A DNA stretch of 64,000 nt from an uncultured bacterium (GCA_965552055.1 CBEVQO010000009.1:17202-81201), one strand, 5' to 3'. Shown: positions 9,291 through 60,585, counted from the first letter of the stretch. Numbers and translations: made by a program. Notes: generated by a model from the sequence alone, not told the origin.

Positions 9291-9367
9291 TAGCCCCGCC
9301 TCCCTGTCCCCACCACCCTCCTCACAACCCATATGTAATTAGCTCGCTTACGCTCGCATTAAATTTT
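9291..9367 (+). repeat. dispersed element copy A (minimal: left end fused to right end)
   Basis: TAGCCCCGCCTCCCTGTCCCCACC...ACAACCCATATGTA..GCTCGCTTACGCTCGCATTAAATTTT; both ends shared with copies B-F. Confidence 0.9.
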
Positions 9368-9371
9368 ACCC

Positions 9372-9398
9372 TTGACATCTTCTTATTTTTATTACAAT
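9372..9398 (+). promoter_or_regulatory. promoter TTGACA-N15-TACAAT, probably leaderless (ATG 9405)
   Basis: Direct read; ATG lies 6 nt after the -10 box with no SD. Confidence 0.7.
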
Positions 9399-9404
9399 AT
9401 TACC

Positions 9405-10181
9405 ATGATGCTTGCATATTTAATTTTTGGGCTTTTTAGACCTTTTAATTTCAATGTAGAATATGAATTTTCTGAGACGAGCGCTGTAAAATTTGAGCCT
9501 GTGATTGAGGAGATGATAGTAAAAATGGATTTCGGTAGTATCAACCTTAGCACATGGGAAAAGGATTACATAGAGGGAGAAATAATCAAAGAAGCAGAAA
9601 AAGAAAAAGACTTGAAGAAAATAAAACTCGAGAAAGAAAAAATAGGAAGCAGGGTAAAAATAAAAGTAAAAGGCAAAGGCAGAATCAAAAATGCAAGGGT
9701 AAAGGTAAACCTGAAAATACCGGAAAAACTCAAAAAGATGGAAACATCTATAAATGCTGGAAATCTAAATCTCAATGGTGAAAAATTCACATGCGAGAAT
9801 ATGGATGTAAAAATAAACGCAGGAAGTTGTAATTTATCAATCAACAATCTTAAAATTGCAGAATTGGGAGTTAATATAAATGCAGGAAATATGGAAATTG
9901 AGGGTGAAAAATTCTCATTCAACAATATGAACATCGAAATAAATGCAGGAAGCGGTGAATTGCATACAAAAGAAATATCCGGTAAAAATATGGAAATAGA
10001 AGTAAATGCAGGCAATATGGAAATTTATCTACCAGAAGATGAAAATATCGGAATAATTGAGAAAGAAGGCGTGAGCAGGGTCTCATCAGATTTGCCAATA
10101 TACACAAAAGATGTAGATAAACCTTTCAAAATAAAATTAGAAGTAAATGCAGGAAAAATAGAAATCCATAAGATTGAATGA
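9405..10181 (+). CDS. DUF4097-like beta-strand repeat exported protein
   Basis: N-terminal hydrophobic stretch; repeated (I/V)NAG(N/S) units with internal duplication. Confidence 0.7.
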
Positions 10182-10887
10182 AAGAAATTAAAAGATTCTT
10201 AAAATTCTTAAAACCTTACTGGAAAAAAGGATTATTAGCTTTTTTCTTAATGCTTATATCCGTATTACTGCAATTGCCAATGCCCTTTCTTACCCGCTAT
10301 ATCATAGATAAAGTAATTTTACTTAAATCTTTCAAAATTTTAAACATTATAGGTTTTGTTTTAATAGGAGTTATTTTTCTACAATCTTTCTCTTCATTTC
10401 TGGAAAATTATTTATTAACCACTTTTAGAGCAAGGGTGCTTTTTGATGTCCGTTATAAACTATATGAGCATGTTCAATTGCTTCCTCTCAAATTCTTCCA
10501 TGATAAAGGCACAGGATATCTTATGGCAAGAATATCTGGGGATGTTGACACACTACAGGGCTTACTTGCAGATACTTTCATAGCATCAGTAAGAAATTTG
10601 CTCATATTCAGTGGTAGCATTAAAGAAAATATACGCTTTGGTAAGCCATCTGCAACTGATGAAGAAATTGTTGAAAGTGCTAAAAAATCACACGCTCATG
10701 ATTTTATCATAAAATTACCAAAAGGTTATGACACCGAAATTGGTGAAAGAGGCGTAAAATTATCAGGAGGTGAGCGTCAGATAAAATAATCGTAATAGAA
10801 GGAGGTGAAATCGTCGACATCGGGAAGCATATAGAATTATTAAAAAGATGCAGTGTTTATAAAAACCTTTACTTAAATTATTTTTAG
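10178..10887 (+). pseudogene. ABC exporter (TMD+NBD) eroded by two internal deletions
   Basis: TMD start fused directly to [20 protein letters not shown]; no Walker A/B; C-terminal [21 protein letters not shown] continues in another frame and ends at the TAG (10885-10887) of element B. Confidence 0.85.
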
Positions 10888-11170
10888 CCCCGCCTCCGCT
10901 GTCCCCACCTTCCCATGTGCACACCCCTCCTTTCAGTCGGGGTGTGACAAACTACCCTTATGTAATAAACTCGCTTCGCTCGTATTAAAAAATTTAATAC
11001 AAAAATTAAAAATTTTAATATTAATGTTAAAAAATTTAATAAAAAATTTAAAAATTTTAATAAAGTCGTTAAAAATTTTAACTACATGTACACCCCTTGC
11101 AAGGCACAAGTACTGCCTCGACAACACCTTAGCTCTATAAACGCCCTTCCCGCCTCGCATTAAAAATTTT
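10885..11170 (+). repeat. dispersed element copy B (complete short copy + 21-bp array + second partial copy)
   Basis: Left end at 10885; CACACCCC/GGGGTGTG hairpin; right end CTCGCTTCGCTCGTATTAAAA; second module 11085-11170 matches the interior and right end of copies D/E. Confidence 0.9.
10984..11088 (+). repeat. 5 x 21-bp AT-rich tandem repeat, each with near-palindrome TTAAAA-A-(T/A)TTTAA
   Basis: Units start at 10984, 11005, 11026, 11047, 11068 (exact 21-bp period). Confidence 0.85.
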
Positions 11171-11173
11171 CTC

Positions 11174-11202
11174 TTGACATTTTTCATTATTGATTATATA
11201 AT
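11174..11202 (+). promoter_or_regulatory. consensus sigma70-type promoter TTGACA-N17-TATAAT for integrase and possibly cassettes
   Basis: TTGACA 11174-11179, TATAAT 11197-11202. Confidence 0.8.
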
Positions 11203-11227
11203 TATGATGCAAACTCTAGGGTATAAA

Positions 11228-12217
11228 ATGGCAAAAGAAGGAAAAACTCCTTTTGTGAAAATTGATCCGGGAAGAAATAATAAGATTATAATCAGAATTC
11301 CATACAATCAGGATTTGATAAATAAGGTAAAATCTATACCCAGAAGGGAGTGGAACCCACAGGGGAAATATTGGGAAGTTCCTTACAGTGAAGATTTAAT
11401 AACAAAATTAAAGTCTCTTTTTGGAGAAAATCTTGTCGTTGATCCTTACTTTTATCTTATCCCACTCCAGAAGGAACTTTCCATAAGAAAATATTCAAGG
11501 AGGACAATCAAGTCATACATAAGAATTAACAGAGATTTTCTTTTATTCTCTGGAAAGAGACCAGAGGAGATAGAAAATAAAGATGTTAAGGAATATCTTT
11601 ATTATGCGGTAAATCAGAAGAAAGTTGCTGCATCTACTTTGAATGTTATTATAAATGCTTTGAGATTTTATTACGGAGAGATCTTGAAGAAGAGATTCGC
11701 TTACGAGATAAAGAGACCGAAGAAGGACAAGAAGCTTCCTATTGTTCTGAGCCAGGAGGAGGTTTCAAGGATTCTATCTTCCGTTACAAATCTTAAGCAC
11801 AGGCTGATTTTGATGCTCATGTATTCTGCCGGCTTGAGAGTTGGAGAGGTTGTAAAGCTTAAAATCGAAGACATCGATGTGAAGAGAAGGTTGATCAGAG
11901 TAAGGGGTGGAAAGGGAAGGAAGGATCGCTATACGATACTCTCTGAAGTTGCGCTGAAAACTTTTAAAGAATACGCTGAGATCTTTGAGCGAGCAAGGAA
12001 TAAAGCTGGAATAAAGAAGGATGCTACAGTTCACTCTTTGCGCCATTCATTTGCTACTCATTTGCTCGAAAATGGAGTGGATTTGAGATGTATTCAGGAA
12101 TTACTGGGACATAAACATTCTAAAACGACAGAGATTTATACTCACGTGAGCACTAAGAATTTGAGTAAGATTAGAAGTCCGCTGGACATGCTGGGAGGTG
12201 AGAAGCATTCAGAATGA
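11228..12217 (+). CDS. integron-associated tyrosine recombinase with N-terminal extra domain; apparent in-frame deletion in catalytic domain
   Basis: SAM_4-like RKYSRRTIKSY, KKLPIVLS, GLRVGE, GKGRKDR, HSLRHSFATHLL, LGH, IYTHV; lies upstream of attI and attC array; the WLFP-containing segment usually found between KEY and IFERA is missing. Confidence 0.85.
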   Translation: MAKEGKTPFVKIDPGRNNKIIIRIPYNQDLINKVKSIPRREWNPQGKYWEVPYSEDLITKLKSLFGENLVVDPYFYLIPLQKELSIRKYSRRTIKSYIRINRDFLLFSGKRPEEIENKDVKEYLYYAVNQKKVAASTLNVIINALRFYYGEILKKRFAYEIKRPKKDKKLPIVLSQEEVSRILSSVTNLKHRLILMLMYSAGLRVGEVVKLKIEDIDVKRRLIRVRGGKGRKDRYTILSEVALKTFKEYAEIFERARNKAGIKKDATVHSLRHSFATHLLENGVDLRCIQELLGHKHSKTTEIYTHVSTKNLSKIRSPLDMLGGEKHSE

Positions 12218-12220
12218 GTG

Positions 12221-12287
12221 TATACGCAATGCAGATATGACTCTAATTTGGAATGATATACGCAATGCGTATATGAACGAGTTAGGC
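12221..12287 (+). mobile_element. putative attI site
   Basis: Two copies of TATACGCAATGCnnATATGA (12221, 12257; the second is palindromic ATATACGCA-A-TGCGTATAT) followed by core GTTAGGC at 12281, complementary to GCCTAAC ending cassette 1. Confidence 0.75.
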
Positions 12288-12322
12288 GACATATCCCGCA
12301 AACCGTATAAGGAGGTGTGAAA

Positions 12323-13393
12323 ATGAACGAAGAATATGTACAAGAGATAGATGAATTGATAAATATGGTTCCTAAAGATATTGTTAATTTTGCTTTAAAA
12401 AGGAAAAGAGGAAATGTTCCTACACAAGCATTTTCTGAATTTCTTACAAATAGAGAACAAGGTGACTGGGCAGAAGATTTAATTTTTAGAGCCATAAATG
12501 AAATTGAAAACGGAATTGTTGCCGTGAGATATGGAAAATCCGACCAAATTGTAGCAGGAGAGCCAGGATTTAAAGAATTCTATGAAAAATATCAAGATGA
12601 ACTGGACACTATAGGTAAGCGACCTGATTTGCTTATTTTTAGAAAAAATGATTTTAAATTTTCCACCTTTGATATTAGCCACTTTGACGACAATGAATTA
12701 AAACAGGTTGTACCGAAAGCAATTGCTGGATTAGAAATAAGATCGAGTTCATTTCTCGTTCACAAATACACGGAATTTTCTATAAAAAGAAGAGAGGATA
12801 TAATAAATCAAATAGATGAAATAGTAAACAACCTTAAAACTCAATCCTCTGTTCTACCCAGTAGTTGGAAGATATGGCTATCAAATGTTAATCCAGAAAA
12901 TGAGGCAACACTATTTTCGATACCGAGAGCAAGTGTAAAATTAGAATCATTAAAGAGCGCAATCCAGCAACTTCGAGCATTGATTAATTCTTTAAAAAAG
13001 AGAGATTTTCTCAGTTTTACTCCAAAAGCTGAAGATATTTATGTAATCTACAAGTGGATCAAAACTTTTGGTGTTCCCCATTATTATGTGCAAGTATTTT
13101 TCGATCAAGTTTACGCGATCCCTTTTAAGAAGATTTTAGAAATCATATCTGATTCATCTAATGAAGGTAAAATATTCTTCGTTGAAAAGAATACAAAAAA
13201 TCAATTCAAAACGACAATACATATAGATATAAATCAAGGAGTATTATTGGCTGAAAAAATAGATTTTCCTGATCACAGAAGTGAATATAAAGAGCTTGGA
13301 AGGGGAAGATTACTATTTTACGTTACCTTCAGAGGAGGGAAGGCATACTTGGATGTTAATAGATTCTATAAAATGATAGGTCTTCAACACTAA
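12323..13393 (+). CDS. AccI-family Type II restriction endonuclease (cassette 1)
   Basis: PTQAFSEFLTNREQGDWAE, GKRPDLL, GLEIRSS, GRLLFYVTF recalled as AccI-family features; adjacent MTase. Confidence 0.8.
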   Translation: MNEEYVQEIDELINMVPKDIVNFALKRKRGNVPTQAFSEFLTNREQGDWAEDLIFRAINEIENGIVAVRYGKSDQIVAGEPGFKEFYEKYQDELDTIGKRPDLLIFRKNDFKFSTFDISHFDDNELKQVVPKAIAGLEIRSSSFLVHKYTEFSIKRREDIINQIDEIVNNLKTQSSVLPSSWKIWLSNVNPENEATLFSIPRASVKLESLKSAIQQLRALINSLKKRDFLSFTPKAEDIYVIYKWIKTFGVPHYYVQVFFDQVYAIPFKKILEIISDSSNEGKIFFVEKNTKNQFKTTIHIDINQGVLLAEKIDFPDHRSEYKELGRGRLLFYVTFRGGKAYLDVNRFYKMIGLQH

Positions 13394-15027
13394 TGAAGGT
13401 GGTTAAAATGAAAGTGCATGATAAAATATTTAGCGAATTACCTGAAAAAGAATATCTCAAGAGTACTCCTTACGAGCATAGAAGAAAATTAGGGCAATTT
13501 TTTACGCCTATGTTTATAGCAGATTTAATGACTGAATGGATAGTGAATAATGAAAGTGGTACAGAAATATTAGATCCTGCATTAGGTTTAGGAATATTTT
13601 TCAGATCAATTATGAAGAATCACTTTGATAAAATCAAGAAGTTTAATTTTATAGGATACGAAATAGATAAAAACATGGTAAAACTTTCAAAGGATTTATT
13701 TTCAAATATTCCAGAAATAAATGTTCAAATACATAATAGAGACTATCTAACCGAGGACTGGGAAAGAAAATATGATGGTATTGTATGCAACCCTCCCTAC
13801 TTAAAATTCCATGATTACGAACCAAAGGATGTCCTTCTCGATATGTTCAAAGCGAGATTAGGAATGAAACTATCGGGATTTACTAATATTTATACGCTGT
13901 TTATTCTTAAATCAATTTGGCAATTAAGAAATGGAGGAAGGGCAGCCTATATTGTCCCATCTGAATTTTTAAATTCGGATTACGGTAAAAATGTAAAAAA
14001 ATATATCAAAAAGAGTGAGACTCTTAGATTTGTGATAATAATTGACTTTAATCTTGGTGTGTTCGAAGATGCTACAACGACTTCATCTATACTTTTATTC
14101 GCTAAAGATCAAAATAATAAGGAAGTAGAATTTATCAATATTAAGAGCTTAAGGGAATTAGAATTAATCAAGAACTACATTCTATCCTATCCGCTTACAA
14201 GGAAAAAGGGGAGAGTAGTTAAAATCAAGGAATTAGATGAAGCACAAAAATGGAGAATTTATTATCAAGAACTTAATGGAAGTAAGTACAAACATTTAGT
14301 TCCTTTTTCAAAATATGCGAAGGTATCAAGAGGTATAGCAACCGGTGCTAATAGTTATTTTATGTTTTCGGAAAGTAAGAGAGTTAAATATGGTATAAAA
14401 ATGAAATTTCTATTGCCCTGTTTAGCAAAAGCATCTTATGCTAGGAAACATTTTTTTACTAATGGCGATTTCGAGAAGTTAAGAAAAGCGGATAAACCAG
14501 TCTATTTGTTAAATGCTACAGATTTATCTGATGAGAATCTGAGAAAATATATAGAATTAGGAGAAAAACAAGGAATACACAAGCGTTATCTTACAAGTCA
14601 TAGAACTCCTTGGTACTCACTAGAAAATCGGCCACCGGCACCAATCCTTGTGACGGTATTTAATCGAACAGGACTAAGATTTGTACGGAATGAAGCAGGG
14701 GTTTATAACTTAACAGCATTTCATTGTGTATATTTAAAACCTAATATTATACCCAAGGTGGACTTACTGATGGCTTACTTAATTACTGATGTTGCAAGAG
14801 AAATCTTTGAAGATAGCAGACGAGAATATGGAGGAGGATTAAGAAAGTTTGAACCAAATGATCTAAATAATGCTTTTGTTGTTGATTTAGAAAAAATTAA
14901 CCCAGAACATGAAAAAGAGATTTTGAAGTTATTTTACGAATTCAGAGACAAAGAAATAAAAGGAGAAAATACAACTAATGTAAAAAATGAACTTAACGAA
15001 ATATTTTTAGAAATATTTAGGAGGTGA
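13393..15027 (+). CDS. N6-adenine DNA methyltransferase, cognate of AccI-like REase (cassette 1)
   Basis: GQFFTP, ILDPALGLG, NPPY, TRD region with RGIATGAN and REYGGGL. Confidence 0.9.
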   Translation: MKVVKMKVHDKIFSELPEKEYLKSTPYEHRRKLGQFFTPMFIADLMTEWIVNNESGTEILDPALGLGIFFRSIMKNHFDKIKKFNFIGYEIDKNMVKLSKDLFSNIPEINVQIHNRDYLTEDWERKYDGIVCNPPYLKFHDYEPKDVLLDMFKARLGMKLSGFTNIYTLFILKSIWQLRNGGRAAYIVPSEFLNSDYGKNVKKYIKKSETLRFVIIIDFNLGVFEDATTTSSILLFAKDQNNKEVEFINIKSLRELELIKNYILSYPLTRKKGRVVKIKELDEAQKWRIYYQELNGSKYKHLVPFSKYAKVSRGIATGANSYFMFSESKRVKYGIKMKFLLPCLAKASYARKHFFTNGDFEKLRKADKPVYLLNATDLSDENLRKYIELGEKQGIHKRYLTSHRTPWYSLENRPPAPILVTVFNRTGLRFVRNEAGVYNLTAFHCVYLKPNIIPKVDLLMAYLITDVAREIFEDSRREYGGGLRKFEPNDLNNAFVVDLEKINPEHEKEILKLFYEFRDKEIKGENTTNVKNELNEIFLEIFRR

Positions 15028-15078
15028 CGGTTTGCGGGATACGCTTCGCCACTATCGTGGCTCGCCCCTAACGGGGTC

Positions 15079-15169
15079 GCCTAACAAGCGGGTATCTGGC
15101 TTCGGCCTACGCCTTCGCCCAAATCCTTCGCTATCGCTCAGGACTTCAGATACCCGCCAAACGTTATAC
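15079..15169 (+). mobile_element. attC site 1
   Basis: GCCTAAC...GTTATAC cores; inverted arms GCGGGTATCTG / CAGATACCCGC. Confidence 0.9.
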
Positions 15170-15200
15170 GCCATGCTCATGGATGAGGAGGTTGAACTAA

Positions 15201-16412
15201 ATGAATGAAAAATCTGAAAAGGAAATCCTCGAAGAATTTATAGTAAATAATCCAGAACTCGAAAAATTGGAAGAAATTATTAATACATTTAATATATTTG
15301 ATGCTTTAAATATGGTAAATTATGAAATAAGACATTCTATTTTTCTTTCTTGGTTGATGAATCCTCAAGAAAGCCATGGATTAAAGGATTATTTTTTAAA
15401 ATCCTTTCTAAAAACAATAGCTTTAAAAGCTTCTACACTTGGTATAAAAGAAGTCTCAGTATTTGATATAGATTATTGGGATTTTAATGATGCAGAAATA
15501 TTAAGAGAATGGAGAAATATTGACATCCTGATAAGATGCGATGAGCAGAAATTTATTTGCGCCATAGAAAATAAAATATATTCCAAAGAACATAGCGATC
15601 AATTACAAAAATATAAAAAAGTAATCAAAAACGAATACCCGGAATATAAAAAATTGTTTGTCTACTTGACAGTAGAAGGGGATATTCCGTCTGACAATGA
15701 ATACATACCTTTAAGTTATAGTGAAATAGTCCCAATAATAGAACGTCTCATAGAAAGTAAAAAAGACAAATTAGGTTCAGAAATATTATCCTTCATTTCA
15801 CACTATAAAGATATGTTAAGGAGGTATATCATGAAGGATTCCGAAATCCAAGAATTGTGTAGAAGAATCTACCAAAGGCATAAAAAAGCATTAGATCTCA
15901 TTTTTGAGTATAAGCCGGACAAGTTATCGGAAATATACGACTGTCTAGTTGAAATAATAAAAAAGGATAGCGACTTAATCCTAGATGATTCAAGCAAATC
16001 ATATATAAGGTTTATTCCAAAGAGTTTAGATTTTATTCCTAAACAAGGAGAAGGATGGACTAAATCAAAGAGAATACTGCTATTCGAATTTCAAAATACT
16101 ACTGACGGATTGTCTTTATATCTTATTATTGGTCCTGGTTCGGGAGATATCAGAAAAATCCTTTATAATAAAGCTAAAGAAAACACAGGTATTTTTAACA
16201 AATCCAACCGTAAGCTAACCCCGCAGTGGTTTACTATTTACAAGAAATCCGTATTAAAACCCAAAGACTACGAAGATAAAGATATAGAAGAAATCAAAAC
16301 GATTCTCGAAAAGAAATTCGAAAAGATTAAAAATACAGATTTACGCGAAATTGTAAAGAAAATTAAAGAAATTGAAAAAGAAGTTAAGAAATTTAATGAG
16401 CACAGCGTATAA
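15201..16412 (+). CDS. PD-(D/E)XK nuclease family protein (PDDEXK_4-like; cassette 2)
   Basis: EIRHSIFLSWLMNPQESHG, REWRNIDIL, IENKIYSKEHSDQLQKY. Confidence 0.85.
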   Translation: MNEKSEKEILEEFIVNNPELEKLEEIINTFNIFDALNMVNYEIRHSIFLSWLMNPQESHGLKDYFLKSFLKTIALKASTLGIKEVSVFDIDYWDFNDAEILREWRNIDILIRCDEQKFICAIENKIYSKEHSDQLQKYKKVIKNEYPEYKKLFVYLTVEGDIPSDNEYIPLSYSEIVPIIERLIESKKDKLGSEILSFISHYKDMLRRYIMKDSEIQELCRRIYQRHKKALDLIFEYKPDKLSEIYDCLVEIIKKDSDLILDDSSKSYIRFIPKSLDFIPKQGEGWTKSKRILLFEFQNTTDGLSLYLIIGPGSGDIRKILYNKAKENTGIFNKSNRKLTPQWFTIYKKSVLKPKDYEDKDIEEIKTILEKKFEKIKNTDLREIVKKIKEIEKEVKKFNEHSV

Positions 16413-16494
16413 CAGCGGACATACGGCTGCGGTGCTTCGCCCCTTCGCCCAAATTTCCCTTCGGGAAACTTCGTATGTCCGCAGAACGTTGTCC
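16407..16494 (+). mobile_element. attC site 2
   Basis: GTATAAC...GTTGTCC cores; arms GCGGACATACG / CGTATGTCCGC. Confidence 0.9.
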
Positions 16495-16532
16495 GAAATT
16501 CGGCTCGGCGGCTGTAAAATGGAGGTGAATAT

Positions 16533-17522: not shown

Positions 17523-17586
17523 GAAGGTGAAAAAATAGTATGCCGCCGAGCCGAACTCTCCGCTTCGCTTCGGTGCTGTCGCACTC

Positions 17587-17680
17587 GGACAACAGGTGGA
17601 TATGTGGCTTCGCCTTCGGTTACGCCCAAATTTGCTTTGCTAATGCTCCGCAAACTTCACATATCCCCAGAACGTTAGGC
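17587..17680 (+). mobile_element. attC site 3
   Basis: GGACAAC...GTTAGGC cores; arms GGATATGTG / CACATATCC. Confidence 0.88.
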
Positions 17681-17737
17681 GTAATCGGGCAGTGCGGCTT
17701 GGAAGAAAAAACAATAAAAAATTGAGGAGGGATTATT

Positions 17738-18259: not shown

Positions 18260-18260
18260 A

Positions 18261-18792
18261 ATGGAGATAAGGGAATTCAAAATTGAAGATTGGCAAAAAG
18301 TGAGATTTCTGGAAATCATTAAATTTCTTAACTCCATTTGATAGGAAATGGATATATGAAAGAAAAATCAGAGAATATCCAGATCTATTCTTGATTGCGG
18401 AAGATAATGGAAAAGTTGTTAGAACATGTATAGCAAACTACGATGTTCAGTTGAGCTACATTCGTTTTTTGATTAAGGAAGGTTACGAGTCTGTAGGAAT
18501 TGAATTGTTAAAAGAAATGGAGAAGAGACTGAGAAAGAGAGGAACTTTAGCAATGTTCATTGTGCCTCGCAAAGGAAAACCATGTGAGAGGTCTTTAAAG
18601 GCAATAAAACTTGAAGGATTAAACAAATATGCAAACTGCGAATTCTGGGTGAAATTTTTAAATAAGAAGGAGGATTTTCCACCATTAGTAATAGGTGCAG
18701 ATGCTACATTAGCTAAAAACCTTCGCCTAACAGCGCGTTTGCGGTTCGCTCCGCTCGTAATAAAAATTTTTATTGACATCCTCACATTTTGA
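18261..18792 (+). pseudogene. GNAT acetyltransferase-like remnant (cassette 4)
   Basis: MEIREFKIEDWQKV start, then frameshifts; LFLIAEDNGKVV and GIELLKEMEKRL GNAT-like segments; reads through the attC4 remnant. Confidence 0.6.
18725..18772 (+). mobile_element. truncated attC4 fused to right-end motif of dispersed element
   Basis: GCCTAAC (complementary to cassette start GTTAGGC at 17674) followed, instead of a right arm, by GTTCGCTCCGCTCGTAATAAAAATTTTTA. Confidence 0.7.
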
Positions 18793-20729: not shown

Positions 20730-21418
20730 TTGCGATTTTGTTTTTTATTTGCAAAATATTTGCACCGGCATACACAGAGACACTGATTTTTGATACCAGA
20801 GAAATAGAGGAAGTAAAATTAGTAATCAATGGGGTATTAAAAATAAAAACCTATGAAGATGATTTTATTAAAGGTGAAATCCAAGTATTCACATTTGGAG
20901 AAAAACCAGCAAAACCCAAAATTATCCAAAGGAAAAAAGGCAAAAAGCTGATAATAAAAATGGATATAGAAAGAGTTAAAAATCAATCGCTTCACGCAAA
21001 TCTCACTATACCGAAATCTTTAAAAACAATAGATATACAGATGGAAGGAGTAATAGAAATCGATAGCGGACAAGAATCTCAAGCCAATTTGTTCTGCAAC
21101 ATTAAAAAAGGAGGAGTTGTATCAGTGAATGGGATGGCATTTAAAAGAATGAAAATCAAAATGGATGAAGGAATACTAACTTTCACATCAAAAAGTATTA
21201 GAAAAAATTTTAAATTCGATGCAAAATTAAATTTTGGATATGTTAAGATAGATCTACCTGATGATAAAGAAGTTGCGATTTTCTTAAAAGGAGAGCCAGG
21301 TCGAATTCATAGCGATTTCCCTATACACAGTTTCGAAGAGATAGGAAAGATAAAGAAAAGATGCAAAATTCTACTCGAAATAAAATCGGGCATCGTAACT
21401 TGCTATCGCTCGCATTGA
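20726..21418 (+). CDS. DUF4097-like exported protein
   Basis: Signal peptide; similar layout to 9405..10181 (IKGEI, IPKSLK, IHSDFPI); stop lies within a right-end motif. Confidence 0.6.
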   Translation: MIAILFFICKIFAPAYTETLIFDTREIEEVKLVINGVLKIKTYEDDFIKGEIQVFTFGEKPAKPKIIQRKKGKKLIIKMDIERVKNQSLHANLTIPKSLKTIDIQMEGVIEIDSGQESQANLFCNIKKGGVVSVNGMAFKRMKIKMDEGILTFTSKSIRKNFKFDAKLNFGYVKIDLPDDKEVAIFLKGEPGRIHSDFPIHSFEEIGKIKKRCKILLEIKSGIVTCYRSH

Positions 21419-21818: not shown

Positions 21819-21892
21819 CTTCCCCTCCTTTATAAATATTAATCATGCTTACAATTTGTCAATAAATTTTATAAATTTTTTACAATCTTTAT

Positions 21893-21957
21893 CCGCTCCC
21901 TTACTCATTTCACCTTACCCATGTGTAATAAACTCCACTTGCATTAAAATTTTAATT
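21893..21957 (+). repeat. degenerate copy of dispersed element
   Basis: CCGCTCCC..CACCTTACCCATGTGTAATAAACTC..TTGCATTAAAATTTTAAT resembles copies A/B. Confidence 0.55.
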
Positions 21958-23820: not shown

Positions 23821-24058
23821 TAGCCCCGCCTCCGCTGTCCCCACCTTCCCGATTAAGTCAGCCCACTACTGCCCCCGCTATAACGCAATCAAAAGATAAA
23901 GCGTAACACACCAGAGTAACCCACATCACCGTAATGGGCTGACATATCAACCCATTTGGTGATGGGCTCGGCTACGCCTCGCATTAAAAATTATTAGCAA
24001 AAATCACCAAAATACCAAGGCAGTGCCTTGCTCGCTTACGCTCACATTAAAATTTTTA
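23821..24058 (+). repeat. dispersed element copy C plus second right end (24015-24058)
   Basis: Left end at 23821; GTCAGCCCA/TGGGCTGAC stem; right end GCTCGGCTACGCCTCGCATTAAAAA; near-identical to reverse complement of copy F. Confidence 0.92.
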
Positions 24059-35076: not shown

Positions 35077-35324
35077 TGCGAGGCGTAGCCGAGCATAATA
35101 CATATGGGTTGTAGGTCAACACCCCGAGCGGTGAAAGCGGGACTGCGTTTTTAGGGCGTGTTTGCAGTTGATTTTATTCATTGAGCTTGCAAAGCAAATG
35201 AGGTTTTTGGTTGCGAATTTGACTAATTACGGGCAGGGCGTTTTAAGAGCTGTGGCAGGGTGCAGGTCTGTGACCTGTAGCGAGGGGTGTGCACGAGGGT
35301 GGTGGGGACAGGGAGGCGGGGCTA
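35077..35324 (-). repeat. dispersed element copy D (longest)
   Basis: Plus-strand end GGGTGGTGGGGACAGGGAGGCGGGGCTA; start TGCGAGGCGTAGCCGAGC; interior shared with E; its TAG is the stop of 35322..35684. Confidence 0.92.
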
Positions 35325-47747: not shown

Positions 47748-47756
47748 TTTTCCCTC

Positions 47757-48910: not shown

Positions 48911-48911
48911 C

Positions 48912-49004
<93 letters not shown>

Positions 49005-49048
49005 AAAATGCCAAAAAGCCCAGTAGCAAAAATTAAGGAGGATGTAAA

Positions 49049-50251: not shown

Positions 50252-50296
50252 AATTTCTGAATTTTACGGAATTTCAATTTATATGTATTGGGGAGA

Positions 50297-50300
<4 letters not shown>
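50244..50300 (+). pseudogene. DUF4160 toxin N-terminal remnant (18 aa)
   Basis: MPKISEFYGISIYMYWGE* resembles the typical DUF4160 start; ATGA-coupled to DUF2442. Confidence 0.7.
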
Positions 50301-51837
<1,537 letters not shown>

Positions 51838-51925
51838 TGTCAAATATACTTTTACTTTATATTGAAATTGGATTGAAGTTAAGAGTGTTTTTAAGGAACG
51901 GGGCTTTAGCACAATACAAACTACG

Positions 51926-52910: not shown

Positions 52911-52940
52911 ATGCAAATCTTGATATAAAACCTATAAGGC

Positions 52941-54107: not shown

Positions 54108-54187
54108 CGTAAAATATAACGGGATAATAAGAATGTCAATTTGAGATTTTAAGCTTGACAATTTTTATATTTGAATAAAATAAGTGA

Positions 54188-54271
54188 GGGCGTGTGGCGG
54201 AACTGGTAGACGCACGGGACTTAAAATCCCGGGGGCGAAAGCCCGTGAGGGTTCGAGTCCCTCCACGCCCA
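54188..54271 (+). tRNA. tRNA-Leu (TAA), no encoded CCA
   Basis: CGGGA-CTTAAAA-TCCCG anticodon arm, variable arm, GGTTCGAGTCC; promoter TTGACA-N15-TAAAAT at 54155-54181. Confidence 0.95.
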
Positions 54272-55582
54272 TTCCCAGAAAGGAATAAACTTTATTTTTA
54301 AATCATCAACAACTTTTTCACCTTTGAAATCAAAAGTTATAATCTCACATTCTTTTACTTTTAACTCTTTTGATGCCTTTTTTAAAGCTCTTATTTCTCT
54401 TTTTAAAGTATTTTCGTTTTTAACATCCCAGCATGCTTGAAGTAGTTTCAATGGCTGTAAATTCTCCACAAGTACGAAATCTACTTCTTCTCCTCTTTCG
54501 TTCTTCCAGTAAAATACATTGTAATTTCTTCTTATGAGTTCCATGAAGACCGCATTTTCAAATAACATTCCCCAATCTATTTTTAATTTAAACATGGAGA
54601 GAGATAAAAAGCCCGTATCAACGATATAAATTTTCTTTGGATATTGCAATCTATCTTTTATCTTGTAAGAAAATATTTCAACGGGGAAAACTAAAAAAGC
54701 ACTTTTCGCATATTCGAGATATTTCAATAAAGTAGTTTTTGTTATTTTAATACCAATTGATTTCAAAAAATTAGCAGATTTAGATGCACTGAAAAGTGTT
54801 CCCGCGTTTGCAATTAATAATCTGATAAAAGCTTCAAATTCCTGTATATTGTGAATTTCAAATTTGCTTATTAAATCGCGATAAAAAATTGTGTAAAATA
54901 AATCGGTTAAAAGCTCTCTTTTGTTTTTCGATAAAACAATTTGAGGAAAGCCACCAAATAGTAAGTATTCTTTGAATAAGCGTAAAAGTTCATCATGACC
55001 AGAAAATCTCATATATTCGTAATCTAAATTGAAACCTTTAAATTTAAGAAATTCGACAAAACTTAGAGGATAAATTATTTTTGTTAAAGTTCTTCCTGCG
55101 AGCAAAGGAGGTAATTCTCTCGGAGTAAGTTTAGATGAAGAGCCTGTAAATATTATTTTTGCTATTCTTTTATCAAGCAAAGTTCGTAAGCCCCTTTCCC
55201 AATCTGGCACCGCCTGTATCTCGTCCAATAATAAAATTAGCGGAGGTCTTACATTATAATTCTGGAAAATTATGGAAGGTAACTCAATTATTTCTTTTCC
55301 TTTAAGTGGCTGTAATCTCTGGTCTTCAAAATTCACATAAATTATTTTCTCATGTGGTAATTTTTTTCGCAGTTTATCTGCTATCTCAAATAGTGTAAAT
55401 GTCTTACCTGCACGCCTTACTCCGACAATCCCATAAGCGATGCCTTCCTGCAATTCAATATCCAGCACATTTCTCTCAACATAATCCGGCACATCCGAGT
55501 GCAACCACTCATCAACAATCAACTTCATTTTTTCATTATCGTCCATTATATTGGACAATTTTGTAGCATTATTGTTCATCAC
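54221..55582 (-). CDS. AAA_14 ATPase with DUF4143 domain; C-terminus runs antisense into tRNA-Leu
   Basis: GVRRAGKT, LLDEIQ, TGSSS, GGFP, KIYIVDTG, FENAV, EVDFV. Confidence 0.9.
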   Translation of the reverse strand: MMNNNATKLSNIMDDNEKMKLIVDEWLHSDVPDYVERNVLDIELQEGIAYGIVGVRRAGKTFTLFEIADKLRKKLPHEKIIYVNFEDQRLQPLKGKEIIELPSIIFQNYNVRPPLILLLDEIQAVPDWERGLRTLLDKRIAKIIFTGSSSKLTPRELPPLLAGRTLTKIIYPLSFVEFLKFKGFNLDYEYMRFSGHDELLRLFKEYLLFGGFPQIVLSKNKRELLTDLFYTIFYRDLISKFEIHNIQEFEAFIRLLIANAGTLFSASKSANFLKSIGIKITKTTLLKYLEYAKSAFLVFPVEIFSYKIKDRLQYPKKIYIVDTGFLSLSMFKLKIDWGMLFENAVFMELIRRNYNVFYWKNERGEEVDFVLVENLQPLKLLQACWDVKNENTLKREIRALKKASKELKVKECEIITFDFKGEKVVDDLKIKFIPFWEWAWRDSNPHGLSPPGF

Positions 55583-55620
55583 ATTAAACTATATTGAAAA
55601 TTTAAGGAAGTCAAGTGTGA

Positions 55621-55822
55621 ATTTTATTGCGAGCGTAAGCGAGCCCGTTACATAAGGGTCTTTTGTCACACCCCGAGCGGGACATGATGTGTTTTGATAG
55701 GCGGTGTAAGATGGCAGATTTGACTTATTATGGGTAGGGCGTTTCAAGTAGCCACAGCGTGTCGGGACTGTGTCCCGCGAGGGGTGTGCACATGGGAAGG
55801 CGGGGACTGGGAGGCGGGGCTA
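55621..55822 (-). repeat. dispersed element copy E
   Basis: Plus-strand TTATTGCGAGCGTAAGCGAGC ... GGGAAGGCGGGGACTGGGAGGCGGGGCTA; interior homologous to D. Confidence 0.92.
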
Positions 55823-55829
55823 ATAATTG

Positions 55830-58466
55830 TTAATAGATTTCTTTTAATTTTTTGAGGATTTTTTCGAGTTCCTTTATTAGTTTTTCTGCCTTATTTATCA
55901 AATCTTCGGGTTTTAATTTTTCTTTCTTTTCCTCTTTTATTTTTAAAGGAATGCCTTTAAGAATTAGGTCGATTGCCTCTTTGAATGTGTCTGCCCATAC
56001 TATTTTTTCCTGTGTTGCTACCACTACTTTTCTGAATTCCGGCATTTTACTTGCTACTGCCTGCAAAAAGATTGGTTCAACATAAATTATTGTATTGCCA
56101 AGCGGTATTACAAGTAGATTTCCCCTTATTATCTGGGAGCCCTGTTGATTCCACAGGGTTATCTGCGCTGACATCACCGGGTCCTGGTCTATGCGTGCTT
56201 CTATCTGCATGGGTCCGTATACTAACTTTTCTTTCGGAAATTTGTAAACTATCAATTCTCCATAATTTGCAGTATCACATATTCCGCAAATCCAAGCAAT
56301 CATATTGTTTTTCTTTATGGGTGTAAATGGTAAAATGTTTATAAATTCGGGTTTGCCTCTTATTTCTGCGATTATGAAATAAGGAGTAACTTTTTGTGTT
56401 TTATCTATATATAATTCTTTTGCTATCTCCCATGCATCTTCTTTGTTGTAGAAAACTTCGGGTTCCGTCATATGATAAATTCTGTAAACTTCTGCCTGAA
56501 TTTCAAGAAGGTCATCGGGATACCTTATGTGAAAATAAATCTCTCTTGGCATCTCTTTAATATCTCTAAATAAATCTGGGAAAATTTTTCTGTAACATTT
56601 TATCAAAACATCTTCTTTATCGATGATATAGAATTTCACATCGCCATTATAAGCATCGACAACTGTTTTTACGCTGTTTCTTATATAGTTAATCTTGCGA
56701 TAATAAACTTTTCCTTTTTCTTTCTTCTCAATCCATTTCGTTTTTATCCTTTCAGAATATGGGAATTTATCAGTTACTGTGTAAGCGTCAATTATAAAAT
56801 ATAATTTGCCGTTTGCAATTACTATATAAGGGTCGTGGTCAAATTCGAGAAATGGACATATTTTCTTTACTCTTTTCTTTATATTGCGATAAAGCAATGC
56901 CCTTGAATCCTTTGTTATATATCGTGATATTAAAAATCTTATTCCATCAAATTTCAATGCTATTCCTAACTTTATCAAAAAGTTTTTGAGTTTTATCCCA
57001 CCTTTTCCTTTGTATTCTGTATATACATTTTTGTCACCTGCCGGGTAGTCAAATTCTTTTGTTTTTGTGTTTACATAGACAACTCTGTCTGTAAGTTCTC
57101 CGTAGTAAATTCTTGGTTCTGTAAGTTTTAAATCTTTGACTTTTATTTTTGGTGGCATATCTTTTATCAAAAGGTTAGGCAATCCTCCTGCTGTGAATTC
57201 GTTAACGGGTGCAAGACATACTCCGTATCCATGCGTATATTTAAGGCGTAAGTTCACCCATGTTTTTGATTTGTCGGGTAATAAATCCTGGTCTAATTCT
57301 CTGGGTGATACCATAACTTCTCTCAATTCACCATTTATGTAATATCTATCGATGTCAACATCCGTGAACCTGTAATAAAGGCGTATTTCCTGAATTTGTT
57401 TGTAAGTGAGTAGAAGAGCTCTCCAGTCCCACAATCTTATGTTTTTCAAAGTATTTTCATATTTTTTGATTATTTCGGATGTGGGCTCTCCTTTTATATC
57501 AAACTCTTTTTCTTTGCATTTGTGTAGATTATATGCGTAGCGTGTAAATTTTATATTGTGCTTTATATACGGCTTTTCCATTACAATTTCGTTTGGTGCG
57601 ACGATCAATGCATGGAAAGCAGATGGTATTATTCCGCAAATTACGATGTAAGATGCAAAATAAAAGATTAGAAGATTTCTTAACCGGACTAAATTTTTGC
57701 TGAAAAATAATAAGATGGCAGATGCGATGGATATTGCTGAGAAAATCAAATATGCTGGCAATTGCACTTTTATGTCTGCATAACTTGCACCTGTTACCAC
57801 TCCTCTCTCTGAATACAATAAGCCATATTTTGCGATGTAAGTTCTTAATGCTATTAAAATGAAGAAAGCAAAAAGATAAGGTCGTATCTCGTGTAAGAAA
57901 GCAGATGTGAAAAATGGTTCAAATGTGTATGTGATTCTGTATAATCTTTTGAAGATTAAGAGAATTATGCAAATCAAAAATAGCCAGATTAAAAATTCTG
58001 TGCATAATCTTAAAAATGGATAGGTGAAAAGGTAAAAGCTCACATCTTTTGCAAAAATTGGCTCTTTCAATCCTGTATTTGTTCTGTTTAAATATTGTAA
58101 AATCAATAGCCATTTTGATTGAAGTATTATTCCGAAGATGAGTGATATGAATCCCGAAGTTAAGAATCTGAGCCATTGTGGTAAACCTTTTGATGAGAAA
58201 AATATTATCAAGAAGGGGATTATGAAACCCGTTGCGAAAAGTATCCATCTTACAGATAACTCTTTGAGATAGCGTTTAAGGAAGGATAGATTTTTGAACC
58301 ATAGGGCATCGATATAAATGTTGAGGAAGTAAATGAAGAGGGTTAGTATTATTATTCCTGTGAGTGTTATTTTCAGGTATTTTTTAAAGTTTCTGCGATA
58401 GTATATGGAACGCAGGAGAGGGATAAGCAGAGCACAATAAGCTAAGAAGAACAAAAACTTAAGCAT
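55830..58466 (-). CDS. UPF0182 family membrane protein
   Basis: NIRLWD, QEIRLYYRF.DVDIDRY, YTHGYG, NYIRNSVK, RGNLLVIP, YVEPIFL. Confidence 0.93.
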   Translation of the reverse strand: MLKFLFFLAYCALLIPLLRSIYYRRNFKKYLKITLTGIIILTLFIYFLNIYIDALWFKNLSFLKRYLKELSVRWILFATGFIIPFLIIFFSSKGLPQWLRFLTSGFISLIFGIILQSKWLLILQYLNRTNTGLKEPIFAKDVSFYLFTYPFLRLCTEFLIWLFLICIILLIFKRLYRITYTFEPFFTSAFLHEIRPYLFAFFILIALRTYIAKYGLLYSERGVVTGASYADIKVQLPAYLIFSAISIASAILLFFSKNLVRLRNLLIFYFASYIVICGIIPSAFHALIVAPNEIVMEKPYIKHNIKFTRYAYNLHKCKEKEFDIKGEPTSEIIKKYENTLKNIRLWDWRALLLTYKQIQEIRLYYRFTDVDIDRYYINGELREVMVSPRELDQDLLPDKSKTWVNLRLKYTHGYGVCLAPVNEFTAGGLPNLLIKDMPPKIKVKDLKLTEPRIYYGELTDRVVYVNTKTKEFDYPAGDKNVYTEYKGKGGIKLKNFLIKLGIALKFDGIRFLISRYITKDSRALLYRNIKKRVKKICPFLEFDHDPYIVIANGKLYFIIDAYTVTDKFPYSERIKTKWIEKKEKGKVYYRKINYIRNSVKTVVDAYNGDVKFYIIDKEDVLIKCYRKIFPDLFRDIKEMPREIYFHIRYPDDLLEIQAEVYRIYHMTEPEVFYNKEDAWEIAKELYIDKTQKVTPYFIIAEIRGKPEFINILPFTPIKKNNMIAWICGICDTANYGELIVYKFPKEKLVYGPMQIEARIDQDPVMSAQITLWNQQGSQIIRGNLLVIPLGNTIIYVEPIFLQAVASKMPEFRKVVVATQEKIVWADTFKEAIDLILKGIPLKIKEEKKEKLKPEDLINKAEKLIKELEKILKKLKEIY

Positions 58467-58478
58467 CAGATATTGTAA

Positions 58479-60029
58479 TTACAACCTCTCGGATATTGCT
58501 TTTGCCTGTAAGAATAGCAAGAGATAATCTTTTCCGCCTGCTTTTGAGTCGGTTCCAGACATGTTGAAGCCTCCGAATGGGTGTGCGCCCACCAGTGCTC
58601 CTGTGCATTTGCGGTTTATGTAAAGATTGCCACAATGAAATTCTTCCTTTGCCTTTGCTATTTTCATGCGGTTTTTGGTGTAAACAGAACCTGTCAATCC
58701 ATAAATTGTGTTGTTTGCGATTCTCAAGGCATCATCGAAATCTTTTGCTTTTATAATGGCAAGAACAGGACCAAAAATTTCTTCCTGAGCAATCCTTGCA
58801 TTTTCATCTACATCTTTGAAAATCGTAGGTTCTATAAAATATCCTTCAAGGTCTTTTATTTTGTTGCCACCCAAAATTAATTTGCCTTCCTTTTTGCCAA
58901 CTTCAATGTATCCCAATATTTTCTTTTCTGCACGCTCATTTATTACGGGTCCCATGAATGTATCTTCTTTTTCTGGATAATCGACTTTTATTTTCTTTGT
59001 CGCCTCTACCAACATATCTATGAATTTATCGTAGATACTTTCTAACAGTATGAGTCTTGAGCATGCAGAGCATTTTTGTCCCGAGTATCCGTATGCTGAT
59101 GCTACAACGCCTTTTACAGCATCTTCCAAATCTGCTTCGTCATCCACTATTATTGCGTCTTTTCCACCCATTTCTGCTATTACTCGCTTAATCCATATTT
59201 GACCTGGTGAAGTTTTGCCAGCGAGTTCTACAATTCTTAATCCAACATCTTTTGAGCCTGTAAATGCTATGAAGCGGGTTTTTGGATGCGATGTAAGCGT
59301 ATCACCCACTTCTGCACCTTTGCCCGGAAGGAAATTCAGCACACCATCGGGCAACCCTGCTTCGTACATTATCTCTGCAAATTTGTAACCTATTACAGGT
59401 GAATCACTTGAGGGTTTTAAAATTACTGTATTACCTGTTACAATTGCTGCCGATGTCATTCCACAAAGAATTGATAAACCAAAGTTCCATGGTGGTATCA
59501 CCACGCCTGCACCAAGCGGTATGTATCTTAATTCGTTGAATTCGCCTTCGAGGGGGGTTACTCCTTCAATTTGTGAGTATCTAATTGCTTCTCTTGCGTA
59601 GAATTCGAGGAAATCAATTGCTTCTGCTGTTTCGCCATCTGCTTCTGGCCATGTTTTACCTATTTCGTAGCATAACCATGCGTTAAATTCGTATCTCCTT
59701 TCTCTTAGTATTTTTGCTGCTTTTAGCAGTACTCCTGCTCTTTCCCATGCGGGGACTCGTTTCCATTCTTCAAATGCTTTCCATGCTGCTTCCATTGCTT
59801 TTTCGACTTCGTCCTTTGTAGCAAGATGCACCTCGCCTACGACTTCACCCGGTCTCGCTGGGTTTATTGATTTTAGTTTTTTACCGGTGCGTACTTCTTT
59901 TCCGTCAATTATCAGCGGATATTCTTTACCCAATTCTGCTTTTACTTTTTGCAGAGCGTCTTTCATCTTTTTCTTTATTTCGTCTTTTGTAAAATCCAGA
60001 AATGGTTCATTTTTGAATTCCGGAAGCAT
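58479..60029 (-). CDS. pruA: L-glutamate gamma-semialdehyde (P5C) dehydrogenase
   Basis: FKNEP, PPWNF, AEMGGKD, GQKCSACSR, EEIFGPV, PFGGFNMSGTDSKAGG. Confidence 0.93.
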   Translation of the reverse strand: MLPEFKNEPFLDFTKDEIKKKMKDALQKVKAELGKEYPLIIDGKEVRTGKKLKSINPARPGEVVGEVHLATKDEVEKAMEAAWKAFEEWKRVPAWERAGVLLKAAKILRERRYEFNAWLCYEIGKTWPEADGETAEAIDFLEFYAREAIRYSQIEGVTPLEGEFNELRYIPLGAGVVIPPWNFGLSILCGMTSAAIVTGNTVILKPSSDSPVIGYKFAEIMYEAGLPDGVLNFLPGKGAEVGDTLTSHPKTRFIAFTGSKDVGLRIVELAGKTSPGQIWIKRVIAEMGGKDAIIVDDEADLEDAVKGVVASAYGYSGQKCSACSRLILLESIYDKFIDMLVEATKKIKVDYPEKEDTFMGPVINERAEKKILGYIEVGKKEGKLILGGNKIKDLEGYFIEPTIFKDVDENARIAQEEIFGPVLAIIKAKDFDDALRIANNTIYGLTGSVYTKNRMKIAKAKEEFHCGNLYINRKCTGALVGAHPFGGFNMSGTDSKAGGKDYLLLFLQAKAISERL

Positions 60030-60047
60030 CTCCCCTCCTTTTTCAAA

Positions 60048-60194
60048 TTATAATCTTATTACAGGGATGTCAACATTTTCTTTTGCTTCCTCGGATAGTA
60101 ACTTTCGTGCTACATGTATTTGTTGCAGTGCGAAGTCCCTCGGAAATTCCTTTTTAACATCTTTTTGTATTTTTTCTTTGATTTTTTCATCCAT
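60048..60194 (-). CDS. small putative antitoxin-like protein (48 aa)
   Basis: Manual translation MDEKIKEKIQKDVKKEFPRDFALQQIHVARKLL..; RBS GGAGGT; follows the PIN remnant. Confidence 0.5.
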   Translation of the reverse strand: MDEKIKEKIQKDVKKEFPRDFALQQIHVARKLLSEEAKENVDIPVIRL

Positions 60195-60297
60195 ATTTAC
60201 CTCCTATAAAAAACTCTTCTGTTAGTAACTTTCTTTCTGGATTTCTATCGTCAAAAAGGGCAGATATTACGGATGTATCCAAATATATTTTCATCAT
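60187..60297 (-). pseudogene. PIN-domain toxin N-terminal remnant
   Basis: MMKIYLDTSVISALFDDRNPER..EEFF then premature end; promoter TTGACT-N15-TAAAAT at 60302-60328. Confidence 0.75.
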
Positions 60298-60387
60298 TTT
60301 AATTTTACTCTTGGATTCAGAAAGTCAAGTATTTATTGGGCACATTCTGTTTTTATTTATAAGGGTAGAAGATTGAGAAAGCTAGAT

Positions 60388-60585
60388 ATTAAAATTTTTG
60401 AAATTTGTATTAAATTTTTAATGCGAGGCGTAGCCGAGCTCATCACCAAATGGGTTGATATGTCAGCCCATTACGGAGTTGTGGGTTACTCTGGGTGTTT
60501 TACGCTTTATCTTTTGATTGCGTTATAGCGGGGGCAGGAGTGGGCTGACTTAATCGGGAAGGTGGGGACAGCGGAGGCGGGGCTA
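60388..60585 (-). repeat. dispersed element copy F
   Basis: Near-identical inverted copy of C; its TAG is the stop of nfo; two AT palindromic units beyond the right end. Confidence 0.92.

Follow-up and report, generated by a model that had tools for sequence, protein, structure and literature searches.

A family of asymmetric, modular intergenic repeats in an uncultured hydrothermal-vent bacterium

The subject of this analysis is a short, modular repeat that recurs in a stretch of 64,000 nucleotides from an uncultured hydrothermal-vent bacterium (GCA_965552055.1, CBEVQO010000009.1:17202-81201), which as a whole is called the window below. In our contig numbering, the window is C9:17202-81201 of the G000 assembly, which comprises 2.23 Mb in 15 contigs with 35.7% GC and is 97% complete. 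The repeat has two dissimilar GC-rich ends enclosing interiors of several types, and the six copies of it that a first-pass annotation had noticed in the window belong to a family dispersed through the genome.

The repeat in the window and its anatomy

In the window, the left end TAGCCCCGCCTCC (13 bases) has six exact matches against 0.29 expected, a number that none of 100 shuffles reached, and all six copies are found at the coordinates and on the strands that the first-pass annotation had given; a reading of the six also bears out the common right end and the nested interiors that it described. The smallest, copy A (9291..9358, + strand, 68 nt), is of a minimal class that consists of the left and right modules without a central hairpin, and lies between a divergent ManC-like gene (8218-9270, - strand) and a DUF4097 gene. 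Copy B (10885..10984, +, 100 nt) is of class 1, with a short CACACCCC/GGGGTGTG hairpin. Class 2 is represented by copy D (35077..35324, -, 248 nt), in which the CACACCCC stem is filled with 158 nt, and copy E (55628..55822, -, 195 nt), with a 106-nt fill that carries an inner stem, GGGACA/TGTCCC. The two class 3 copies, C (23821..23983, +, 163 nt, with a loop of ~75 nt) and F (60422..60585, -, 164 nt), have a GTCAGCCCA/TGGGCTGAC stem and are 96.3% identical. The TAG with which the left end opens is the stop codon of the open reading frame (ORF) at 35325-35684 in the case of copy D, and of the AP_endonuc_2 gene at 60586-61422 in the case of copy F. TTAAA or ATAAA follows the right end in five of the six copies, the exception being D.

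On the right side, copy A faces the DUF4097 gene, copy B an integrase gene, copy C a DEAD-box helicase closest to BrxHI (251 bits), copy D a ResIII gene in a type III-like restriction cluster, and copy E an AAA_14/DUF4143 ATPase that matches the candidate defence family PDC-S01 (347 bits). The 36-aa ORF to the right of copy F has no Pfam match, and the PIN label that it was given presumably goes back to an N-terminal resemblance only. The list of right-side genes in the first-pass annotation is a fair one for the window, where defence genes are more frequent than among the neighbours of the copies genome-wide. Defence-type genes are dense in the window (41073-42419, 36826-37245 and 28561-34958), with a BrxC/D-like ATPase, a HEPN protein, a type III-like restriction cluster (N6_N4 methylase and ResIII), a UvrD-PDDEXK helicase-nuclease and two small retropepsin-like proteins encoded in these ranges.

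The partial copies reported near 11085, 18742, 21401, 21893 and 24015 can now be described as right-end-only units, a class 2 fragment and a degenerate copy. Behind the right end of copy B lies an array of AT-rich units (AAAAWTTTWAAYA; 10985..11081, +), followed by a fragment of class 2 fill fused to a right end (..CCCGCCTCGCA; 11082..11159, +) directly before the integrase promoter. A right-end motif (TTCGCTCCGCTCGTA and ATAAAAATT; 18745..18759, +) is joined to a truncated attC site with GCCTAAC at 18725 and is followed by a TTGACA promoter, while another (CTTGCTATCGCTCGCA and TTGAAAATTTTTAAT) occupies 21399..21414 (+). A degenerate minimal copy (21883..21943, +) precedes the promoter of an S41 peptidase gene. 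Finally, copy C is followed in tandem by an extra unit composed of TAGCAAAAATC.., a CAAGGCAGTGCCTTG hairpin and a right-end motif (23995..24046, +). Such extra right-motif units stand in tandem behind full copies elsewhere in the genome too, those of the latter type at five other loci.

Described on its C-rich strand, the element is bordered by a left flank, (T)AATT(T/A)T, with 70-90% conservation across 6-7 bases, and opens with the left module, TAGCCCC(G/T/A)CCTCC(C/GC)WGTCCCCRCC, which is near-invariant in all classes. It is followed by an optional central hairpin, the stem of which differs in sequence between classes and the loop of which ranges from 8 to ~376 nt; the loop filler is C-rich and G-poor and is assembled from common sub-modules, the same sub-modules being found inside fills and beyond right ends. 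After the hairpin come ACCCWTATGTAAY, three variable bases, the right motif CTCG(n)C-loop-G(n)CTCG(C/T)A with its mini-hairpin, and the right flank, (T/A)TAAAAATTT, with 60-90% conservation across 10 bases. The earlier statement that the element has no terminal inverted repeats holds for its GC-rich ends, which are unrelated to each other, but not for the A/T flanks AATTTTTA and TAAAAATT, which are mutual inverted repeats of 8 bp. The strand bias in composition is pronounced (C 0.37 and G 0.16 for the whole element; C 0.35 and G 0.13 for the fills), and the complement of the left module is a canonical G-quadruplex motif (four G runs, loops of up to 7) in 40 of the 65 two-ended copies of the genome, and such a motif is present in all 65 if loops of up to 12 are allowed. 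In the whole 2.2 Mb, taking both strands together, 41 of the 67 canonical G-quadruplex motifs (loops <=7) fall inside copies of the repeat.

Across the family, the ends and stems are near-invariant and the loops diverge. This is seen best in 24 aligned class 3 copies (pairwise identity 68-100%, median 83%, 276 pairs), where the ends and a 9-bp stem hardly vary and the 75-nt loop comes in two diverged subtypes. In the same alignment the right-motif variants GCTCGCTTACGCTCGCA, GCTCGGCTACGCCTCGCA and ACTCGCTTCGCTCGTA assort independently of the interior; hence, the copies are mosaics. Pairing in the right mini-hairpin is kept by matched insertions (GC-TTAC-GC, GGC-TAC-GCC and GGGC-TAC-GCCC), and the central stem has compensatory variants (CACGCCCC/GGGGCGT and GCACAGCCCA/TGGGCTGTGC), with inner stems, GGGACA/TGTCCC or AAGGCAC/GTGCCTT, in short class 2 fills. 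Internal-deletion derivatives retain both termini, TAGCC.. on the one side and ..ATGTAAT with the right motif on the other.

A genome-wide family and its placement between genes

Profiles built from both ends detect 68 left and 61 right modules in the genome, and the pairing of modules together with a relaxed right-end pattern yields 65 two-ended copies. These fall into size classes of ~68 nt (n=6), ~100 nt (n=15), ~160 nt (n=24) and 128-466 nt (n=20). A strict left-end pattern has 59 matches in this genome and no match in the 271 others of the phylum, its reversed control being negative (0 matches), and searches with a whole copy using BLAST were negative in all 40 relatives tried; the genome is the sole member of its taxonomic family in this comparison set. 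Metagenome collections were scanned with a 17-base left-end pattern that was too loose, only seven of the 206 loci fetched being real, and these seven are short metagenome contigs with a common name prefix that are 95-100% identical to the genome. Judged from these searches, the family appears to be found only in the same species, i.e., in this genome and its metagenome contigs. The first-pass annotation had not recognised a named family, and none emerged here: the repeat has no match in plasmid, phage and viral-contig collections, Rfam yields only four tRNAs in the window at gathering scores and nothing for the six copies at E<=1, and a literature text search for the end motifs returned unrelated primers only.

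The neighbours of all 65 copies were scanned against Pfam, each gene being assigned to the element end that it faces. The 64 copies with two neighbours comprise 25 in divergent, 21 in tandem co-oriented, 11 in tandem opposite and 7 in convergent contexts, with an intergenic background in the genome of 376 tandem, 177 divergent and 52 convergent gaps. The co-orientation with a downstream gene that the window copies display is not significant genome-wide, either in tandem contexts (21 vs. 11, p=0.11) or by the count of gene starts faced by the right end (46/64) and the left end (36/64; p=0.10).

The two ends differ in how they meet their surroundings and in what lies beyond them. At the left, 27 long ORFs read into the element, of which 12 stop at its TAG (12 vs. 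3, 1/3 expected, p=0.0003), nine stop at a TAA 4-11 nt before it, three stop 20-31 nt before it and three read through; of the 37 divergent contexts, 27 have a -35 box on the reverse strand (TGTCAA) within 20 nt of the left end, 12 of them at a distance of 7-8 nt. The copies take up the gap from such a stop codon or -35 box, to their left, as far as an A/T tract with a promoter, to their right. As 409 promoter-like sites without an element also have AAAWTTTT just upstream of TTGAC, the flanks resemble the A/T tract that is usual before promoters, which fits insertion into such a pre-promoter tract. Beyond the ends, neighbours without a Pfam family are in excess on the right (23/64 vs. 7/65 on the left, p=0.0008), also if only genes starting at the element are counted (17/46 vs. 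4/37, p=0.01), and restriction-modification, toxin-antitoxin and integrase genes that start at the element tend the same way (~10/46 vs. 2/37, p=0.057). The left genes are mostly housekeeping ones: five aminoacyl-tRNA synthetases, PurB/F/L/Q, PNPase, MutS, L28, MnmG, a ClpB-type protein and RadA. The AT-rich unit AAAAWTTTWAAYA is equally one-sided, with 21 of its 93 genomic occurrences within 200 nt beyond the right ends of 14 elements and none beyond left ends.

One right-side neighbour is an integron at 11204-18744, which adjoins copy B and whose integrase gene runs in the same direction as the cassettes. The integrase matches TIGR02249 (integron integrase) best in NCBIfam, with 223.8 bits, below the cut-off of 265, and its Phage_integrase match in Pfam is split in two. 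An attI site, with two direct repeats and GTTAGGC, lies near 12281; the attC sites, read by eye and with one motif, are at 15030-15190, 16406-16497 and 17540-17690, with a truncated one at 18725-18744 that runs into a right-end motif. The cassettes encode an AccI-type endonuclease and its methylase, a PDDEXK_4 nuclease and proteins of no assigned type. Relics of the same integrase gene, each a promoter with the first 45-120 nt, are found at C7:29417-29507 and C10:26327-26444, the one on C7 having an attI-like site and an attC (C7:32611) behind it, and all three integron platforms (the one in the window and the two relics) directly follow a right end of the element. The loops of the attC sites at 15030-15190, 17540-17690 and C7:32611 contain motifs of the GGCTTCGGCCTACGCCTTCGCC/GGCTTCGGCCTACGCCTTCGCCCAAAT type, which resemble the right motif (GGCTCGGCTACGCCTCGC/GGCTCGGCTACGCCTCGCA) save for three single-base indels in low-complexity sequence of the CTTCGC type; by sequence, the likeness may reflect chance or a common origin.

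Two further features of promoters came to light on the way. A portable module of promoter and leader, TTGACATT.TTCA.TATTGATTATATAATT-ATGATGCAAACTCT..GGTATAA, stands before unrelated genes in the window (11170-11230) and at C7:29440, C10:26340, C2:13700, C3:55178(-), C5:117994 and L102:385-450. We had considered the ATGATGCAAACTC.. module as an integrase relic at six loci, but only those on C7 and C10 qualify, the others sharing only the common promoter and leader. Many genes of this genome also begin with ATGATG 6-8 nt past the -10 box, which suggests leaderless mRNAs.

Copying, exchange and alternative explanations

Over 162 nt, two unlinked copies, at C1:385299 and C3:76646, do not differ at all (100% identity), and their flanks are unrelated beyond GTAATTTT and TTAAAA; we take this identity as evidence of recent copying. 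Two class 2 copies of 415 nt, 95.9% identical and in direct orientation 3.1 kb apart (C2:62374-66317; L224:875-4818), bracket a gene pair that encodes a phosphodiesterase and a lectin-like protein. The flanks of 61 copies, compared at 14 x 16 boundary offsets with permuted flanks, show no excess of direct repeats of 3-8 bp, a result with which a fixed 2-bp TA duplication would still be compatible. Head-to-tail junctions of right and left ends do not occur in the genome, and the strand of the element is unrelated to the sign of the local GC skew (Fisher p=1.0).

Comparison with a sister strain points to the right end as the place where adjacent DNA changes. The contig L074 matches the genome up to ..CCTCGCA and then continues into 1.4 kb that the genome lacks, the two ORFs of which have no match in Pfam or PADLOC. 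Contigs of three further sequencing runs from two studies continue without any difference from the right motif into this DNA; therefore, the joining of a right end to sequence absent from our genome is real. In a second contig, L102, the divergence sets in within the right part of the element, and a different right motif and promoter stand in place of the DNA on the tRNA side. A joint within copy E (55676-55779, with sides of 28-29 nt) is best explained by other short-loop copies that align with the ends of E.

A cognate enzyme for these events was sought among the recombinases and transposases of the genome. The sole recombinase candidates are one IS110-family gene, two Xer-like genes and the integron-type integrase. 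The latter qualifies the statement that no cognate enzyme is visible in the window, for it lies directly after copy B; evidence that it acts on the element was not found. None of the recombinase genes is flanked by copies of the element, as judged from the genes next to the copies. The IS110-family gene (C6:126424-127452; L217:865-1893) has a long 3' non-coding tail and a transposase-less derivative of ~200 bp, made of head and tail, at C1:358245-358444; a 42-nt piece of the same tail lies beside the end of an rRNA region at C5:37481-37522. Descent of the repeat from this insertion sequence (IS) was considered and set aside, the best similarity between them being only 10-11 nt (E 0.45-1.8), with the exact ends of the IS not fixed. 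The single IS110 element, lacking convincing similarity to the repeat, gives no support to the IS110 logic that the first-pass annotation had proposed. The HUH logic that it drew from IS200-IS605 and IS91 fares no better, given the complete lack of matches to PF01797 (Y1/RAYT) and of any GC-skew orientation bias; PF04986 (Y2, IS91/ISCR) also has no match in the genome, but its control matched none of 14 reference genomes. What stands of the idea of a non-autonomous mobile unit is the dispersed and modular nature of the family, its asymmetric ends, its recent copying and the start of variable DNA at its right end in a sister strain; the particular enzymology is not supported.

Taken together, we read the ~65 copies as a species-restricted and hitherto undescribed family of REP/BIME/NIME-like, non-coding, modular intergenic repeats that has likely spread within the genome as a small DNA parasite and likely serves to anchor recombination on its right side, a reading to which we give an even chance. 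Briefly, it would work as follows. A process specific for the ends, and without target duplication, would copy the whole unit into the A/T tract before promoters, behind a stop codon or a -35 box. We propose that internal-deletion derivatives would persist because copying depends on the termini alone. Subsequent exchange between copies, homologous or site-specific, would reshuffle the right motifs along with the DNA beyond them, from which the mainly right-sided position of orphan, restriction-modification and toxin-antitoxin genes and of the integron would follow. The copying enzyme may be missing from the 97%-complete assembly or may have been lost.

A number of observations weigh against this reading. 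The identical copies could stem from gene conversion between old copies as opposed to new insertion. The search for PF01797 was negative in this genome with a control that was positive in 6 of 14 reference genomes; PF07282 (TnpB), PF00239 (resolvase) and PF00078 (reverse transcriptase) likewise have no match, nor have PF00665 (rve) and PF01609 (DDE_Tnp_1), to which the search for DDE enzymes was confined; and no sequence feature ties any of the candidate recombinases to the element. Regarding the sister strain, the assignment of the new DNA to a particular copy rests on one assembly since contigs break inside the element, and both junctions could be assembly joins at a repeat. No empty site or bridging contig emerged when contigs of four runs were compared with positions 41001-61000 of the window, though metagenome assemblies break at the element, which makes empty sites hard to see. 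As to gene content, ~16 of the 46 genes that start on the right are housekeeping ones (a release factor, FBPase, a NuoE-like protein, asparaginase and others). Right and left genes are alike in GC, GC3 and length and differ weakly in codon-usage distance (p=0.10), so composition gives no sign that the right-side genes are foreign. Thus, the notion that the element marks accessory or defence loci is only partly true: the right-side excess of genes without a Pfam family supports it, but about a third of the right-side genes are housekeeping, and gene composition is alike on the two sides. Finally, the gene calls are crude longest-ORF calls, and the functional classes and the tally of neighbour classes were assigned by hand.

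The one-sidedness of the element invites a more directional explanation, namely that it is an attI-like landing pad at whose right end (..CTCGCA followed by TTAAAAATT) promoter-bearing genes are integrated site-specifically, by the integron-type integrase, an Xer protein or the IS110-family enzyme, a process that could be triggered by the G-quadruplex-forming left module. Every polar feature lies at the right end, the segments that succeed one another in the window between 10.9 and 24 kb each open with a right motif and promoter, all three integron platforms sit directly behind right ends, the attC-loop motif GGCTTCGGCCTACGCCTTCGCC resembles the right motif GGCTCGGCTACGCCTCGC, and most of the genome's G-quadruplex motifs reside in the element; in Neisseria, a G-quadruplex upstream of pilE is reported to start recombination (PMC3547852, PMC13463697). 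However, right-only units, which one would expect at the far end of a cargo, are rare (a loose pattern finds seven, mostly in tandem behind a full copy), the element lacks the RYYYAAC/GTTRRRY core sites of the true attC sites nearby, the likeness to attC loops lies in low-complexity sequence and may be due to chance, and the platforms number just three; the missing head-to-tail junctions and the lack of a recombinase gene flanked by the element also count against it. We therefore consider site-specific integration at the right end unlikely. Its boldest form would have the ~65 copies be the landing pads of an undescribed genome-wide gene-capture system, a multi-site, promoter-proficient analogue of attI, in which the fixed left module, as a G-quadruplex/i-motif former abutting conserved genes, would trigger breaks or load the recombinase, and foreign promoter-bearing genes, even a whole integron platform, would integrate at the right end; this we hold to be decidedly unlikely.

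Alternatively, the element could serve the host in cis, as a Rho-loading site or terminator combined with a stop-codon cap, or as a G-quadruplex/i-motif insulator or protein-docking site between the packed promoters of an AT-rich thermophile. The C-rich, G-poor strand that begins with TAG, the ORFs that stop there, the closeness of TGTCAA boxes to the left end, the near-invariance of the left module across classes and the compensatory changes that keep the central and inner stems paired are all in keeping with such a role. Yet copies in tandem contexts lie in both orientations, the ends of 18 genes point at the G-rich side, degenerate copies and those with internal deletions decay at their sites, and only ~65 of ~600 intergenic gaps are occupied. 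Moreover, the conserved neighbour genes manage without the element elsewhere, as the family is absent from the 271 other genomes of the phylum, and a tight fit between stop codon and promoter would be expected of any insert in a genome that is ~94% ORF under our gene calls. With no significant orientation bias, the Rho-terminator version was rejected, and a host function in cis as a whole seems improbable to us. A structured non-coding RNA family, be it a small RNA or a guide-like RNA tied to gene acquisition, had also been envisaged. The conserved central hairpin with its variable loop and some compensatory changes, and the matched indels of the right mini-hairpin, speak for it, but folding is weak (mean z-scores against shuffles of -1.4 to +0.4 on either strand), the consensus structure amounts to one central stem and the right mini-hairpin with the left module unpaired, Rfam has no match, the adjacent promoters point away with none seen that belongs to the element itself, and the loop varies from 8 to ~376 nt. 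Hence, an RNA family is highly improbable.

Comparison with known systems

Small intergenic repeats are common, most of them without a known mechanism. The present family has clean asymmetric ends and discrete nested classes, with one side fixed at conserved genes and the other gathering orphan genes, defence genes and an integron. If this polarity marks a real point of integration or recombination, it would show by what route uncultured thermophiles, with their compact genomes, take up genes in the absence of classical transposons. Otherwise, we are dealing with one more family of REP/NIME-like repeats, which would still be of use as a strain marker and, since contigs break at it, as a warning for assemblers.

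The REP/BIME/REPIN repeats of Enterobacteria and Pseudomonas are reported to be mobilised by RAYT (Y1 HUH) transposases (PMC3116915, PMC2817692, PMC3733652). They share with the present family a high copy number, small size, a non-coding, strictly intergenic and hairpin-bearing nature, mosaicism, restriction to a lineage and the lack of target duplication. Unlike REP, the element has no imperfect palindrome of 20-40 bp tagged with GTAG/CGTC at one end; its ends are TAGCCCC.., which is C-rich and unpaired, and ..CTCGCA, its stems CACACCCC and GTCAGCCCA are untagged, its two ends are dissimilar, and neither a RAYT/Y1 gene, which such repeats usually flank, nor a GC-skew orientation bias was found in the genome. 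Another parallel is offered by the neisserial intergenic mosaic elements (NIME), in which dRS3 flanks RS units, and by the NTS/SsnA pair, for which more variable neighbour genes are described and a role is proposed as recombination substrates that aid the exchange of adjacent genes (PMC1797815, PMC11893778). The shared features are a mosaic intergenic make-up, variable neighbours and an orientation conferred by a non-palindromic flank next to a hairpin, whereas our element lacks a 20-bp inverted repeat of the dRS3 type, occurs mostly in single copies and has variability on one side, the right. The genome encodes no single-domain Ssn, as its sole match to PF01541 (GIY-YIG) is in an ORF of 581 aa at C1:439970 that is UvrC-like by size.

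With the attC and attI sites of integrons, the element has in common its position directly after stop codons, a conserved stem with a very variable loop and a place at the border of exchangeable genes. It departs from attC in lacking R''/R' core sites, in having ends that do not complement each other and in preceding genes with promoters of their own; the attC sites in the window also look different.

Correia-type miniature inverted-repeat transposable elements (MITEs) and the palindrome-associated elements derived from IS200/IS605 are non-autonomous, form deletion derivatives that keep their termini and often lie beside promoters. Compared with MITEs of the DDE type, which have terminal inverted repeats of ~10 bp or more, the only inverted termini of our element are the 8-bp A/T flanks, target duplication was not detected, and the genome has no rve, DDE_Tnp_1 or Y1 gene; compared with IS200/IS605 derivatives, there is no Y1 TnpA or TnpB in the genome, no hairpin at the left end and no replication-strand bias. 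It also shares no termini that we could see with the resident IS110 element, which has its own, different 200-bp derivative. Although they belong to another domain of life and are unrelated in sequence, and the resemblance is only a lead, the mobile GC clusters of yeast mitochondria offer a further parallel, as enzyme-less, GC-rich hairpin modules in AT-rich spacers that are bounded by A/T or TAG-type sequence.

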